Source: a candidate division Hyd24-12 bacterium UBA5074 (GTDB lineage: Bacteria > Fermentibacterota > Fermentibacteria > Fermentibacterales > Fermentibacteraceae). From it: a stretch of DNA of 60,523 bases. Location of the stretch: positions 471 through 60,993 of the forward strand of contig DIAQ01000108.1 of NCBI GenBank assembly GCA_002414865.1, read 5' to 3'. The first letter of the stretch is position 1. Each line of letters opens with the position of its first letter. This document shows, one piece after another, positions 53,500 to 58,444 of the stretch. The notes below the pieces were generated by a model. That model saw only the letters and a list, made by a program, of their open reading frames with translations. It did no database searches and was not told the DNA's origin. Position numbers and translations under genes: made by a program.

Positions 53500-54279
53500 T
53501 TGGAGAGACAGAGAATTCAGACGATCATGCTGCTGGCCTGTCTGGCCGGCAGCCTTGCCGCATGCATCGACCTGGGACGGCGCCTGGGTTCCGAGAGGGA
53601 GGAGCTGCGGGCGCGCATGACCCTCGCCGACGCAGCCATAGCCAGATGCGACACTCTTGCCGCGGCCAACGGCGCGCTCGTCGCGCAGGTCGACTCCCTG
53701 CGCATCTACAGGGAGGAGGCCCTCTCCGCCAGGTACAGGGCCGAGGCCGACAGCATGGCGGTCTCGTATCCGGACTACTACCTCGTGATCGATACCGGCC
53801 AGAACAGGTTCCAGCTCCGCAGGGGCGATCTGCTGGTCCGGTCCGGCTACTGCGGGACCGGGAAAGGCTGGACAGCCAACGATCTGGGGAACGCATGGGA
53901 TTTCAGCACGCCGAGAGGGCTGCGGAGCGTCCAGGGGACCGGCGAGAACCCCTACTGGTACAGGCCGGAGTGGTACTGGCTGGAGCAGAACATGCGCCCC
54001 CCGACGCCCGAGCAGCTCGTCGTGATACCTGAGAGCCTGAGCTACACCGAGCAGATCACCTACTACAACGATTCCCTCACGGCTTCCGAGCGGGTCTACG
54101 TCGCCCGCGTCCCAGGCGTTCTCGGCAGCTACAAGATCGATCTCGGGGGAGGTGTTCTCCTCCATTACGGCACCGGCAGGGGGAGCAACGTGAGCCACGG
54201 GTGCATCAGACTGAGCTCCGCCGACCTGGAAGCCCTCTTCAGGACGCTTCCCGTCGGCGCCCCGGTGCTGATCTACTGA
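53500..54279 (+). CDS. L,D-transpeptidase (YkuD) family lipoprotein
   Basis: Lipobox LAAC; coiled coil; STPRG, SHGCIRL; start TTG 53500 or ATG 53527. Confidence 0.87.
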   Translation: MERQRIQTIMLLACLAGSLAACIDLGRRLGSEREELRARMTLADAAIARCDTLAAANGALVAQVDSLRIYREEALSARYRAEADSMAVSYPDYYLVIDTGQNRFQLRRGDLLVRSGYCGTGKGWTANDLGNAWDFSTPRGLRSVQGTGENPYWYRPEWYWLEQNMRPPTPEQLVVIPESLSYTEQITYYNDSLTASERVYVARVPGVLGSYKIDLGGGVLLHYGTGRGSNVSHGCIRLSSADLEALFRTLPVGAPVLIY

Positions 54280-54289
54280 AGGCGGCGAA

Positions 54290-55555
54290 GTGACCGGAGA
54301 AGTGATCCAGGGAGCCGTCGGGCGGATCGGGCGTCACAGGACGGCGCTGGCGGCCGGAGGCATCCTCGCCTTCGCCGCTCTCGCCGTCATCGCCTCGATC
54401 CTCCTCCACAGGGAGGGCCGGGGGGATTCCGGAGCGACCCGGACGACTGGGACGGTCACCGTACCGGCGATATCGGAGGAGAGCATCGCACCCCTGTCCT
54501 TCCTGTGGCTCCAGCCCAGGAATTCCCCTGCGGGGCGCGGGGTGTGGGGACCCGACATATCAGCCCCGTTCGACACTCTGTGGGCCGTCTCCACGGACCT
54601 GGAGTTCTTCGCCGCGCCCGCGTACTCCGAGGGTGTGCTCTACTTCGGCGGCAACGACGGCAGGTTCAGGGCCGTCGACGCGGAATCGGGCAGGGAGCTG
54701 TGGGGCCGTGCCACCGCCTGCGGGCTGAGCTCTGAAGCCGCACTCGACTCGACCAGGGTCTACTTCGGCGGGCAGGACGGCTATCTGTATGCGCTCGAGC
54801 GCGGCAGCGGTTCGCTCGCCTGGTCGGCGGGACTCGGTTATTCGCTGTTCGCCGGAGTTGGGATCCTGGACGATTCGCTCGTGGTCACGGGCAACTCCGA
54901 GGGTTCCGTCGCGGCCCTGGGGGCGGCCGACGGGGAGGTCGTCTGGCACGACAGCCCGGGAGGCGTGATCCTGGGACCCGCCATCTCCGACACCACGGTC
55001 GTCTTCACGACGGAGAGCGGCGTCGTCTGCGCCTATGGCATCTCCGGCCGCCGTCTCTGGATGCGCGACTTCCAGGGCACCGCCTCCCCCCCATCGATCG
55101 CCTCGGGAGCAGTGTTCGCGGGGTTCTCCGACGGGGTGGTGCGGCGGCTCGACCTCGCGGACGGCTCGATCGCATGGGAGAGGGACCTGGCGCCGACCCC
55201 CGGGCGTGTCTCCATGTCCAGGCCCGTGCCGGCAGGCGACCTGCTGCTGGCGGGGACCTGCGACTCGCGCGTCGTGTGCCTCTCTGCAGATGACGGTTCG
55301 ACGGTCTGGGAGGTCTCCCTGGAGAACTGGGTGCAGGTTCCCCCTGCTGTCGGCGACTCGACGGTGTATGTGTCCTGTGACGACCAGCGCTTCCATGTGC
55401 TAGACCTCCATGGCGGAACGGAGCTCTGCGTGCTGGAGATGGGCGGTTATTCAGGATCCGCGCCCCTCGTGGTCAACGGGGTGGTCTACATCGGCACGGC
55501 CGCTGGCGACTTCTTCGCCTATCGAGGAACGCCGCGCCCCCGGGAGAACAGGTGA
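54290..55555 (+). CDS. PQQ-like (BamB-like) beta-propeller protein with N-terminal membrane anchor
   Basis: About 8 repeats of the VYFGGxDGxLYAL...G...W type; no lipobox Cys seen. Confidence 0.85.
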   Translation: MTGEVIQGAVGRIGRHRTALAAGGILAFAALAVIASILLHREGRGDSGATRTTGTVTVPAISEESIAPLSFLWLQPRNSPAGRGVWGPDISAPFDTLWAVSTDLEFFAAPAYSEGVLYFGGNDGRFRAVDAESGRELWGRATACGLSSEAALDSTRVYFGGQDGYLYALERGSGSLAWSAGLGYSLFAGVGILDDSLVVTGNSEGSVAALGAADGEVVWHDSPGGVILGPAISDTTVVFTTESGVVCAYGISGRRLWMRDFQGTASPPSIASGAVFAGFSDGVVRRLDLADGSIAWERDLAPTPGRVSMSRPVPAGDLLLAGTCDSRVVCLSADDGSTVWEVSLENWVQVPPAVGDSTVYVSCDDQRFHVLDLHGGTELCVLEMGGYSGSAPLVVNGVVYIGTAAGDFFAYRGTPRPRENR

Positions 55556-56418
55556 CGGGGCGCATCCACGCGGGCTACGCAGTCATCGCCGGGGCCGCCA
55601 ACAGCGGAAAATCGAGCCTTATCAACGCCATGACTGGTTTCGCCCTGTCCCCGGTCACGGAGCACCCCGGCACGACCAGGGTCCCCGTGACCGCCGTGCT
55701 CTCCCGTCCGGACGTTCAGATCTGCCTGATAGACACCCCTCCGATGGAGTTCGCCGCCACACTCGACCTCATGAGCTGGATGGATGCCCTCTGTCTGGTC
55801 GTGGACTGCAGGAGCATCGAGACGGGTCTGGCATCCCGGGATGTGGACAGGCTGATGGAAGAGTTCTCGGAAAGGCCTGTCGTGCTGGCGCTCACCCACT
55901 CGGACCACTTCCCCGGTGCGCTGCACAGGGCGCTCGCGGTCAGGGCCGGGTATCTGCGGGAGTTCGCCGCCGTATGTCCGGTCTGTCCGCTGCTGGGCTC
56001 GGGAGTCGACGACCTGCGCAAGGCGATTTCCGCGCAGCTCCCGGTCAGGAGGAGGCTGTTCCCGGAGGACTGCAGGACGCTCCACTCCGACAGGTTCCTC
56101 GTCTCGGAGATGATCAGGACGCGCCTCTACGAGGTGCTGCCGGCCGAGATAGCCTCCGGCACGGCTGTGCAGATAGAGGAGTATTCGCTGCGCGACGCCA
56201 AGACCTATGTGCGCGCCAACCTGCTGGTCGCCAGACACAGCAGCAAGGGCATGGTGATAGGCCGCAAGGGCCAGACTCTCCAGCGGATCGTCGAGACCAC
56301 CGTCAGGAGCGCCCTGGATCTCCTCGGGAGGCAGATCAGCCTCGACCTGTGGGTCAAGGTCAGGGAATCCTGGCCCGACAACCCCCACGACCTTCTGGAA
56401 TTCGGCTATGTCCGCTGA
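55552..56418 (+). CDS. era: Era-family GTPase with divergent G motifs and KH domain
   Basis: AGAANSGKSS, PGTTR, DTPP, THSD, SEMIR, KGMVIGRKG, LDLWVKVRESW, EFGY. Confidence 0.8.
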   Translation: MTGRIHAGYAVIAGAANSGKSSLINAMTGFALSPVTEHPGTTRVPVTAVLSRPDVQICLIDTPPMEFAATLDLMSWMDALCLVVDCRSIETGLASRDVDRLMEEFSERPVVLALTHSDHFPGALHRALAVRAGYLREFAAVCPVCPLLGSGVDDLRKAISAQLPVRRRLFPEDCRTLHSDRFLVSEMIRTRLYEVLPAEIASGTAVQIEEYSLRDAKTYVRANLLVARHSSKGMVIGRKGQTLQRIVETTVRSALDLLGRQISLDLWVKVRESWPDNPHDLLEFGYVR

Positions 56419-57154
56419 AGCCTGCAGGATCTCCCTCGAAGCCTTCGAAGGGCCCCTCGACCTCCTGCTCTATCTCATAAGACGCGAGGAGCTGGACATC
56501 CGCGAGGTCTCCGTCGCGCGGGTCGCCGACCAGTACCTCGAATACGTGCGGCAGGCCGAGGAGCTGGACCTGGACGTCGCGAGCGAATACCTCGTGATGG
56601 CCGCCACCCTTGCCGGCATCAAGAGCAGGGCGCTGCTGCCCGGAAGGGGTGATCTCCAGGAGGAGCAGGAGAGTTCCGCAGAGGAGCTCCTGAGGCAGCT
56701 CGAGCTCTACAAGGCGTTCAGGGAGGTGGCCGAGGAGCTCCGCGACAGCGAGGCGACCTGGCGGAACGCCTTCCCGGCCCCTGGCGAGAGGGAGCGATGG
56801 TCCGCCGAGAGCCCGGTACGGCTCGCCGGGCAATACACGATCGTCGACCTCCTGGAAGCCCTCGAAGAGCTGTCTGCCGAAGCCGCGCCGGAAAGCTCCG
56901 AGACACTCGAGAGGCCCAGGCTGACAATAGCGTCGTGCATCTCCTCGATCTCGACATCGCTCGCCCCGGGCGGCTGGGTCCCCCTGGGGCAGATCGTCGG
57001 GGCAGGCTCGTCGAGGCTGAGGCTCGTGGGTTTCTTCGTGGCGATCCTCGAGCTCGTGAGGAGGGGATGGGTGTCCTTCAGCCAGAAGTCCCCGTTCGGC
57101 GAGCTGAGACTGCGCAGAACAGGGCGGTGGAGCGAGGAATGCTCGACAGGCTGA
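56408..57154 (+). CDS. scpA: Segregation and condensation protein A
   Basis: FEGPLDLLLYLI, SEYLVMAATL...KSRALLP, FVAILEL, FSQKSPFGE. Confidence 0.93.
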   Translation: MSAEACRISLEAFEGPLDLLLYLIRREELDIREVSVARVADQYLEYVRQAEELDLDVASEYLVMAATLAGIKSRALLPGRGDLQEEQESSAEELLRQLELYKAFREVAEELRDSEATWRNAFPAPGERERWSAESPVRLAGQYTIVDLLEALEELSAEAAPESSETLERPRLTIASCISSISTSLAPGGWVPLGQIVGAGSSRLRLVGFFVAILELVRRGWVSFSQKSPFGELRLRRTGRWSEECSTG

Positions 57155-57711
57155 CGAGGAGTATCGAGGCGCTGCTGTTCGCCTCGGACAGGCCGCTTTC
57201 CCTGCAGGACCTGTGCGAGCTGACGGGATGCGGTCCCGATGCGGCCGCAGGCGCTCTCGAGCAGCTGAGGGAGGCCTTCGAGGAGATCGGCTCATCCATC
57301 ATCCTGGCCGAGCTGGCGGGCGGCTGGAGGTTCGTGACCGATCCCTCCCTGGGCGACGTCGTTTCGCAGCTATTCGAGGACAGGAGGCCCGGGAAGCTCA
57401 GCAGGGCATCGATCGAGACGCTTGCGGTTATAGCCTACAACCAGCCCTGCACGAAGGCGGCGGTGGAGGCCATAAGGGGAGTGGACTGCGACAGCGCCGT
57501 GCGGTCCCTTCTCGAGAGAGGCCTCGTTAGGATCTGTGGCCGCCAGGAAACCGCGGGCAGGCCGCTCACCTATGCGACGACAGACCAGTTCCTCTCCTCC
57601 TTCGGGCTCCTGGACCTCGAACACCTCCCCCGGCGCAGGGAGATCGACGAGATACTCGCCTCCGGCCCTCCCGCAGAGGAATCCGGTGAGCTCTTCCCGC
57701 ACGAGGGATGA
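57139..57711 (+). CDS. scpB: Segregation and condensation protein B
   Basis: IEALLFAS, LSRASIETLAVIAYNQP, IRGVD, GRPLTYATT...FL. Confidence 0.94.
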   Translation: MLDRLTRSIEALLFASDRPLSLQDLCELTGCGPDAAAGALEQLREAFEEIGSSIILAELAGGWRFVTDPSLGDVVSQLFEDRRPGKLSRASIETLAVIAYNQPCTKAAVEAIRGVDCDSAVRSLLERGLVRICGRQETAGRPLTYATTDQFLSSFGLLDLEHLPRRREIDEILASGPPAEESGELFPHEG

Positions 57712-58444
57712 GGGGCCGGGCACCAGGCTCAACAGGTATCTGGCGAGATGCGGCGCCTCCTCGCGCAGGGGCTGCGACGCGCTGATCGAGAAGGGGCTCG
57801 TCTCGATCAACGGAAGGCGCGCCGACAGCCCCGGGATGCGCGTCATGCCCGGAGATGCCGTGGAATGCGGCGGCCGCATCCTGGTTCTCCCGCCGATGGC
57901 CACCGCCGCGTTCAACAAGCCTGTCGGCATGGAGGTCACACTTGCCGGCGACAGCGGCAGAGGCATCAGGAAGGTCCTCTCCGCGATGCCTGCGGGCTGC
58001 GTTCCGGTGGGACGGCTCGACATCAACACCTCCGGTCTCCTCCTGCTCTCGAACGACGGCGAGCTGGTCTTCAGGCTTTCCCATCCGCGCTGGTGCGTCG
58101 AGAGGGAATACCTCCTGTACCTGGAGAAGCCCCCTTCGCAACCCGCTCTTGCAGGCCTCGGGAGAGGCGTCCTGATCGGCCCGGGACAGGTCTGCCGACC
58201 GATCCGCTTCGAGCGCTCGGGGCCCCTGGGGCTGAAGCTCGTCCTGGGACAGGGGAGGCACCATGAGGTCAGGCGCCTGGCCGAGGCCGCCGGGCTCGCC
58301 CTGGCAGGCCTGGAACGCCTCAGATACGGTCCTGTGTCCCTGGGGGGGCTGGGGCGCGGGGGCAGACGGCTCCTGGCCGGGGACGAGCTGGAAAAGCTCT
58401 ACCGGTGCGTTGATCTCGAGCCTCCGGACTCCTCCAGGCCTTGA
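57686..58444 (+). CDS. rluB: RluB/RsuA-family rRNA pseudouridine synthase
   Basis: S4 domain RLNRYLARCGASSRR; FNKP, GRLDINTSGLLLLSNDG, HPR, GRHHEVRR; in-frame GTG at 57686 with GAGGA RBS. Confidence 0.88.
   Translation: MSSSRTRDEGPGTRLNRYLARCGASSRRGCDALIEKGLVSINGRRADSPGMRVMPGDAVECGGRILVLPPMATAAFNKPVGMEVTLAGDSGRGIRKVLSAMPAGCVPVGRLDINTSGLLLLSNDGELVFRLSHPRWCVEREYLLYLEKPPSQPALAGLGRGVLIGPGQVCRPIRFERSGPLGLKLVLGQGRHHEVRRLAEAAGLALAGLERLRYGPVSLGGLGRGGRRLLAGDELEKLYRCVDLEPPDSSRP

Follow-up and report, generated by a model that had tools for sequence, protein, structure and literature searches.

Conserved remodelling of the GTPase domain of Era throughout the bacterial phylum Fermentibacterota

We have analyzed the era gene carried by a 60,523-nucleotide stretch of DNA, referred to here as the window (positions 471 to 60,993 of contig DIAQ01000108.1, GenBank assembly GCA_002414865.1). 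The window comes from a metagenome-assembled genome (MAG) of the phylum Fermentibacterota that comprises 2.16 Mb on 125 contigs and is 90% complete; among named genomes, Candidatus Fermentibacter daniensis and other MAGs of the Fermentibacteria and Fermentibacteraceae come closest to it. Era, a near-universal factor of ribosome assembly, ranks among the best-conserved GTPases of bacteria; its remodelling in this phylum is real, conserved and phylum-wide. Despite the loss of the switch glycine of motif G3, the Asn-Lys of G4 and the Ser-Ala of G5, era stays single-copy and under purifying selection. The gene and the features of its product are listed below, with the evidence for each.

55552..56418, (+) strand: era coding sequence, 288 amino acids (uninterrupted open reading frame, profile and structure matches, orthologue alignment)
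55591..55614, (+) strand: G1 P-loop GAANSGKS, residues 14-21 (translation, alignment of 63 orthologues)
55672..55680, (+) strand: G2 TTR, residues 41-43 (orthologue alignment)
55732..55743, (+) strand: G3 DTPP, residues 61-64 (orthologue alignment)
55744..55782, (+) strand: shortened switch II and helix alpha2, residues 65-77, including Glu66 (alignment, secondary structure of the model)
55894..55905, (+) strand: G4 THSD, residues 115-118 (orthologue alignment)
55984..55989, (+) strand: G5 CP, residues 145-146, replacing SA (orthologue alignment)
56089..56415, (+) strand: type II KH domain, approximately residues 180-288 (Pfam, orthologue alignment)
56260-56271, (+) strand: GxxG loop of the KH domain, GRKG, residues 237-240 (orthologue alignment)

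The era reading frame begins with GTG, which overlaps the stop codon of the upstream gene (GTGA), and ends 11 nt past the ATG of the downstream gene, scpA. The product matches Era from end to end; in profile searches residues 6-286 cover positions 2-291 of the 291 in NF000908. The scores, 179.1 bits for NF000908 and 105.6 bits for TIGR00436, lie under the curated equivalog cut-offs of 237 and 116.25, respectively, and automated annotation or marker-based pipelines may thus miscall era as absent from Fermentibacterota. Pfam domains were found at 11-115 (MMR_HSR1) and 205-274 (KH_2), and solved Era chains align to the full-length protein at 7e-30. The AlphaFold2 (AF2) model of the protein, with a predicted local distance difference test (pLDDT) score of 93.8, matches Era structures 3iev/7c1o by Foldseek with a template-modelling (TM) score of 0.88. 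We considered whether this pose indicates an Era that is locked in the ON state, as its TM score to apo or GDP-bound Era is 0.46, and rejected the idea: the AF2 model of a canonical Era, used as a control, has the same preference (0.94 to the GTP-bound state versus 0.5), so the pose is a default of the predictor and uninformative.

A preliminary description of the window, made from the sequence alone, had reported altered G3, G4 and G5 motifs and the string AEIAS in place of EELPY (more generally EE[ILV]P[YH]), with G1 GAANSGKS, G2 TTR and the KH loop GRKG retained. Translation of 55552-56418 on the (+) strand bears out all of these, and the retained motifs are conserved across the phylum as well. 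The list of motifs is correct, but the two most telling features of the protein are absent from it, namely a 10-residue deletion in switch II and helix alpha2 and an acidic residue after G3.

A second, canonical era was sought in the source genome with the Era family model TIGR00436 and none was found, no match in the genome exceeding the cut-off of the model; apart from this gene, the search recovered Der (both G domains), a HydF-like protein, MnmE, HflX and Obg. One era orthologue each, at 45-61% identity, is present in 68 of 70 Fermentibacterota genomes (46 of 46 high-quality genomes), and a search with the protein as query gave no second Era-like match in the 70. With this query a canonical Era would be expected at about 1e-27, as was seen for the matches in Myxococcota and Gemmatimonadales. 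The two genomes that lack an era match are 66% and 88% complete. Natural loss of era was considered for the second of these (G069, 5 contigs), where the search returned only G-domain matches to other GTPases. We rejected it because searches for the adjacent propeller, scpA and scpB genes were negative as well, which indicates that the whole block is unassembled and leaves no evidence of era loss.

The alignment on which the following counts are based consists of 63 full-length orthologues; two MAGs with a split era were omitted. The era match extends over two or three frames in G058:C6:72608-73463 and G025:C162:211-1169, reflecting either assembly frameshifts or real disruption. For comparison we used 156 canonical Eras, made up of 127 full-length representatives of 50%-identity clusters, those nearest the query in a library of 1.84 billion proteins, and 29 Gemmatimonadales proteins. 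The unpublished genomes G073 and G098 entered only the tally of the Gemmatimonadales search and none of their sequences was used. Since the changes are found across the phylum, in 63 full-length proteins, they are not unique to this assembly, and an assembly artefact or an oddity of a single genome was rejected. The remodelled form is also well separated from canonical Era: in the search of the representatives scores dropped sharply, from 177 bits or more for proteins of the Fermentibacterota type to 146 bits for the top canonical Era, with no intermediate forms found.

The phosphate- and Mg-binding motifs are the least altered. P-loop residues G14, N17, G19 and S21 are present in 98-100% of the orthologues (N17 in 98%), K20 is Lys in 59 and Arg in 4, and the Mg-binding Thr42 of G2 is T or S in all 63. 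The length of switch I, 21 residues from S21 to T42, is unaltered. The Asp61 of G3 is invariant, while the switch glycine position is Pro in 60 orthologues, Ala in two, Asp in one and Gly in none; the same position in the canonical set is Gly in 154 of 156, Ala in 2 and Pro in 0. The phylum consensus for G4 is [TGSAC][FHRK]xD, in which Asp118 is universal (63/63) and NKxD never occurs (0/63), and 144 of the 156 canonical Eras have NK. The first residue of G5 is C, T or N and the second P (46 orthologues), A (14) or S (3), as compared to SA in 137 canonical proteins; the spacing between G4 and G5 is the same as in canonical Era. Overall, the G-domain positions kept in at least 97% of the orthologues are G8, Y9, G14, N17, G19, S21, N25, Q56, C58, D61, D78, P109 and D118, and six of the nine residues G14, N17, G19, S21, N25, Q56, D61, D78 and D118 are identical in all 63. 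The retained nucleotide ligands are P-loop Ser21, Asn17, Asn25, the Thr of G2, Asp61 of G3 and, in G4, Asp118, which specifies guanine.

The four orthologues with Arg for the P-loop Lys (L017, L018, L019 and L106, in genomes G027, G012, G020 and G017) belong to three genera. Their P-loops read GPANTGRS, GPSNAGRS and GLSGSGRS, and one variant is also without the P-loop Asn; for the L017/L019 pair the ratio of non-synonymous to synonymous substitution rates (dN/dS) of the G domain is still 0.105. Individual deviations were also seen in a few cluster representatives that are otherwise canonical Eras: DTPA at G3 in P0065 (with TRGE at G4) and in P0135, THAD at G4 with a normal G3 in P0072, and GAPGAGKS, lacking the P-loop Asn, in P0010. 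These single deviations may be partial parallels to the Fermentibacterota remodelling.

The segment bounded by the Asp of G3 and the conserved beta4 Asp is 17 residues long in Fermentibacterota Era (19 in one orthologue) and 27-29 residues long in 141 of 144 canonical Eras, with a minimum of 24. The phylum thus has a fixed deletion of 10 residues in switch II and helix alpha2, about one third of the segment. In AF2 models this region of canonical Era forms a 9-residue switch II loop and a 14-residue helix alpha2, as compared to just two short helical turns in Fermentibacterota Era. Residue 66, two past the fourth residue of G3, is Glu or Asp in 56 of the 63 orthologues; its equivalent in canonical Era is His in 65 of 156 and otherwise mainly hydrophobic. 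Residue 66 aligns to Y63 of Aquifex aeolicus Era, at a position noted for its conserved polar residue, the one closest to the attacking water, and the catalytic carboxylates of MnmE and atlastin superpose there (preprint 10.1101/2020.08.16.253419). According to the same preprint, Era and FeoB continue to hydrolyse GTP by substrate-assisted catalysis when the residues presumed to be catalytic are lost.

Conservation is highest in the KH domain, whose mean top-residue frequency is 0.72 versus 0.55 for the G domain, and both glycines of its GxxG loop, G237 and G240, are invariant. Four positions that are 93-100% conserved in canonical Era, E190, P201 (now Ala), G247 and R251, are replaced in the phylum, and Q207, E210, R221, N223, R271, E272 and E283 are newly invariant. 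Helix alphaC, which holds G247 and R251, helps to bind the anti-Shine-Dalgarno sequence CCUCC, according to the general description in a review (PMC10582724). No rRNA operon was found in the source MAG, and the 16S of two relatives whose rRNA is assembled has the canonical 3' end, GGAUCACCUCCUUUCU. On this evidence an altered RNA target was rejected. RbfA, RsgA and YbeY are present. We infer that, as the 30S subunit is assembled, Fermentibacterota Era still uses its KH domain to bind the 16S 3' minor domain.

In a maximum-likelihood tree the Fermentibacterota Eras form one clade with support of 1.0, as expected of a single-copy orthologue inherited vertically. The stem of this clade is the longest internal branch, at 1.06 substitutions per site versus a median of 0.096 and a 95th percentile of 0.30. 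Selection within the clade was estimated from six close pairs with dS <1 (<10% non-synonymous difference), and saturated distant pairs (dS >1) were not used. The dN/dS values range over 0.035-0.143 for the whole gene, 0.060-0.162 for the G domain and 0.011-0.088 for the KH domain. The orthologue alignment and dN/dS comparison that the preliminary description had recommended thus reveal purifying selection. Its argument against simple pseudogene decay, based there on the intact frame and host codon usage, is strengthened: era is the only copy, its dN/dS is 0.04-0.14 and the changes are shared by the whole phylum. Rapid change along the stem, with conservation thereafter, is characteristic of a functional shift and not of decay.

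We favour the interpretation, with a probability of roughly 0.5, that this is a working Era that binds Mg-guanine nucleotide and probably hydrolyses GTP, with a rebuilt switch II and weakened recognition of the base. The GTPase domain would have been rebuilt once, on the phylum stem, and the rebuilt form would have been held by purifying selection since then. The P-loop, the pair of G1 Asn, the Thr of G2 and the Asp residues of G3 and G4 would suffice for Mg-guanine nucleotide and for the K+-dependent chemistry of HAS-GTPases; the two invariant G1 Asn coordinate K+ in Era (PMC10582724). The classical gamma-phosphate sensor is clearly lost, since Pro at G3 offers no backbone NH for the gamma-phosphate, and the switch II loop and half of helix alpha2, which normally move, are deleted. 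The conserved Glu or Asp found after G3 in place of the usual His might position the attacking water or activate it, a catalytic role for Glu66 that is suggested by its position in the alignment. Because the K+ ligands are conserved and a new carboxylate follows G3, it can be argued that hydrolysis is retained by way of a rebuilt site. Base recognition would be thinned, with the Asn and Lys of G4 gone and the G5 Ala, whose NH reads guanine O6, often replaced by Pro. Such thinned contacts predict lower affinity and faster exchange, with guanine still preferred. Signalling may pass through switch I in place of switch II.

Several points weigh against this interpretation. The contact made by the G3 Gly is regarded as universal, and changes there cripple switching in Ras, EF-Tu and G-alpha. 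The G domain is under purifying selection but is held somewhat less tightly than in the control order (mean pairwise identity of the G and KH domains 0.43 and 0.65 in Fermentibacterota, 0.56 and 0.65 in Gemmatimonadales). P201 and R251 of the KH domain are replaced, so RNA recognition may differ. Finally, the P-loop Lys is Arg in four orthologues from three genera and the corresponding K21R change is lethal in E. coli Era (PMC10582724), which suggests that some members, at least, may not need hydrolysis. A more tentative and less probable proposal is that Fermentibacterota Era acts without the classical hydrolysis-driven switch II, as a guanine-nucleotide-bound or nucleotide-sensing RNA chaperone that other factors release. 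If true, such a non-classical Era would contradict the view that the GTPase cycle is strictly required. A somewhat unlikely version of events is an Era that binds nucleotide and is dead for hydrolysis (a 'class II' pseudo-GTPase), which would use GTP or GDP as cofactor or sensor without cycling, and would be released from the pre-30S particle by competing RbfA, KsgA or bS1 or by changes in nucleotide pools. The Gly-to-Pro change of G3, the truncated switch II and the missing His are what would be expected of it, and the Lys-to-Arg change of the P-loop, lethal in E. coli Era, is a classical hydrolysis-killing one; the G domain is moreover less constrained than the KH domain, and RbfA, RsgA and YbeY are at hand as possible displacing factors. 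However, were catalysis irrelevant, the K+-coordinating Asn and the Mg ligands would be expected to drift, and they have not (N17 98%, the others 63/63). A new conserved carboxylate at a candidate catalytic position also speaks against it, as does the ability of Era and FeoB to hydrolyse GTP without their presumed catalytic residues (10.1101/2020.08.16.253419).

The remaining explanations are less probable still. The view that this is essentially a normal Era, whose substitutions are near-neutral or compensated and whose GTPase cycle is ordinary, is quite unlikely. It agrees with the predicted fold and domain arrangement, with the canonical RNA target and with the robustness of Era hydrolysis to switch II mutations (10.1101/2020.08.16.253419), but it does not account for a G3 Pro that occurs in 0 of 156 canonical Eras, a switch II of 17 residues where only one canonical sequence has fewer than 27 (24), or a stem about 11 times the median internal branch; the G4 Asn, moreover, is described as 'absolutely conserved', and its loss in human ERAL1 (N236I) causes disease. 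The preliminary description had proposed either a pseudo-GTPase or a protein using another nucleotide, and neither seems probable. A pseudo-GTPase that no longer handles nucleotide, its G domain a mere scaffold for a KH RNA chaperone, might be suspected because of the deviations in three of the five G motifs and the presence of Pro in place of two residues that provide backbone-NH contacts, the Gly of G3 and the Ala of G5. Known nucleotide-free pseudo-GTPases show a degenerate P-loop, however, and here the G domain is most conserved at G1, at the Thr of G2 and at the Asp residues of G3 and G4 (G14, N17, G19, S21, N25, T42 as T or S, and D61 are invariant or nearly so). These positions should be the first to drift in a domain that has ceased to handle nucleotide. 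With the phosphate, Mg and K+ ligands thus conserved, and a G-domain dN/dS of 0.06-0.16, this explanation is very improbable. We give least credence to a change of specificity to ATP, XTP or another ligand in place of GTP. In its favour are the lost Asn and Lys of G4, the frequent Pro where the G5 Ala NH should read guanine O6, and the case of YchF, which shows that an altered G4 can move a TRAFAC GTPase towards ATP (PMC3583859). Against it stands Asp118, the reader of guanine N1/N2, which is retained in 63 of 63 orthologues and makes a switch to ATP or XTP unlikely. An XTP switch needs an Asp-to-Asn change, and ATP users usually lose the G4 Asp.

Comparison with known systems places the working, remodelled Era that we favour in context. 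It shares with canonical Era (E. coli; Aquifex aeolicus 3IEV/3R9W/7C1O) the architecture of a TRAFAC GTPase joined to a type II KH domain with an extra C-terminal helix, the lengths of switch I and the linker, G1, the G2 Thr, the G3 Asp, the G4 Asp and GxxG, as well as a single copy per genome and, in the phylum, a canonical 16S 3' tail. It differs in the G3 Pro, the 10-residue deletion of switch II and alpha2, the Glu or Asp for His after G3, the changes of G4 (NK to [TG][FHRK]) and G5 (SA to C or T plus P, A or S), the replacement of KH residues P201, G247 and R251, and scores under both NCBIfam cut-offs. The HAS-GTPases of the Era-like superfamily, MnmE (E282), FeoB (E66/E67) and atlastin (D152), are K+-dependent and have an in-cis catalytic carboxylate; they share with Fermentibacterota Era the hydrophobic residue that follows G3 and, judging by the alignment, an acidic residue close to the water that attacks. 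Unlike Fermentibacterota Era, all three keep the G3 glycine. The RGK GTPases (Rad/Rem/Gem/Kir), like other GTPases with a non-glycine G3, are natural, conserved GTP binders that lack the DxxG glycine and switch non-canonically, but they act in eukaryotic Ras-family signalling, a function unrelated to that of Era; their switch II carries no deletion and they are not connected with the ribosome. In Perrault syndrome, human ERAL1 N236I has also lost the G4 Asn; there a single harmful substitution affects a protein that is otherwise canonical, whereas in Fermentibacterota the loss is fixed phylum-wide together with compensating or remodelling changes. The hallmarks of nucleotide-free pseudo-GTPases (degenerate P-loop, lost Mg and phosphate ligands) and of YchF-like ATP-preferring TRAFAC proteins (G4 Asp lost or replaced) are not seen in Fermentibacterota Era, in which Asp118 is invariant.

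A 2023 review considers the GTPase activity of Era to be strictly required and the G4 Asn to be absolutely conserved (PMC10582724), and our literature search on Fermentibacter GTPases found no paper. The Fermentibacterota protein is a natural test of whether Era needs a classical GTP switch and of which parts of the cycle are dispensable. The variant bears on the communication between the two Era domains and on the purpose of GTP hydrolysis, and the handful of defined substitutions could be swapped into model Eras.

Some other GTPases of the lineage also have unusual G4 motifs. Der and HflX of the source genome have textbook G3 and G4. Obg has SKSD in place of NKxD at G4 (C38, L007:1117-2238:-). 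A HydF-like protein of 709 amino acids (C125, L004:613-2739:-) scores 288.8 bits versus a cut-off of 325.55 and has an N-terminal extension of about 270 amino acids; no G4 was found in it with the motif pattern [NT][KR]x[DE]. The source genome also encodes a very divergent MnmE (C75:1436-2737, L005:814-2115:+), which scores 144.7 bits versus the NCBIfam cut-off of 380 and has GRCD at G4. The MnmE G4 is [SG][KR]xD in 24 Fermentibacterota genomes, with a normal G3 and an intact C-terminal CxGK; in the source genome mnmE lies directly upstream of a canonical mnmG. MnmE function needs GTP hydrolysis (PMC3695501), and its example shows that a GTPase of this lineage can lack the G4 Asn and still work, provided that the Asp is retained. 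Era alone has the Pro at G3 and the shortened switch II.

The genes that adjoin era in the window are the following.

54290..55555, (+) strand: gene for a BamB-like PQQ beta-propeller with an N-terminal membrane anchor, upstream of era (neighbourhood conserved in the phylum)
56408..57154, (+) strand: scpA, downstream of era, its start overlapping the era stop; followed by scpB and an rluB-like gene

The gene order is YkuD L,D-transpeptidase, BamB-like propeller, era, scpA, scpB and rluB-like pseudouridine synthase (53500-58444 of the window; L145 G018:C6:24000-33000). This order is kept in both large Fermentibacterota families, with overlapping stops and starts around era. The presence of a bamB-like gene beside a GTPase of the Era family recalls the bamB-der pairing of Gammaproteobacteria. 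In two relatives era lies in open frames of 720-742 amino acids, which raised the possibility of a fusion between Era and the propeller. This candidate was rejected, as the propeller is encoded in another frame and its stop overlaps the era start; the long open frames are due to high G+C content.

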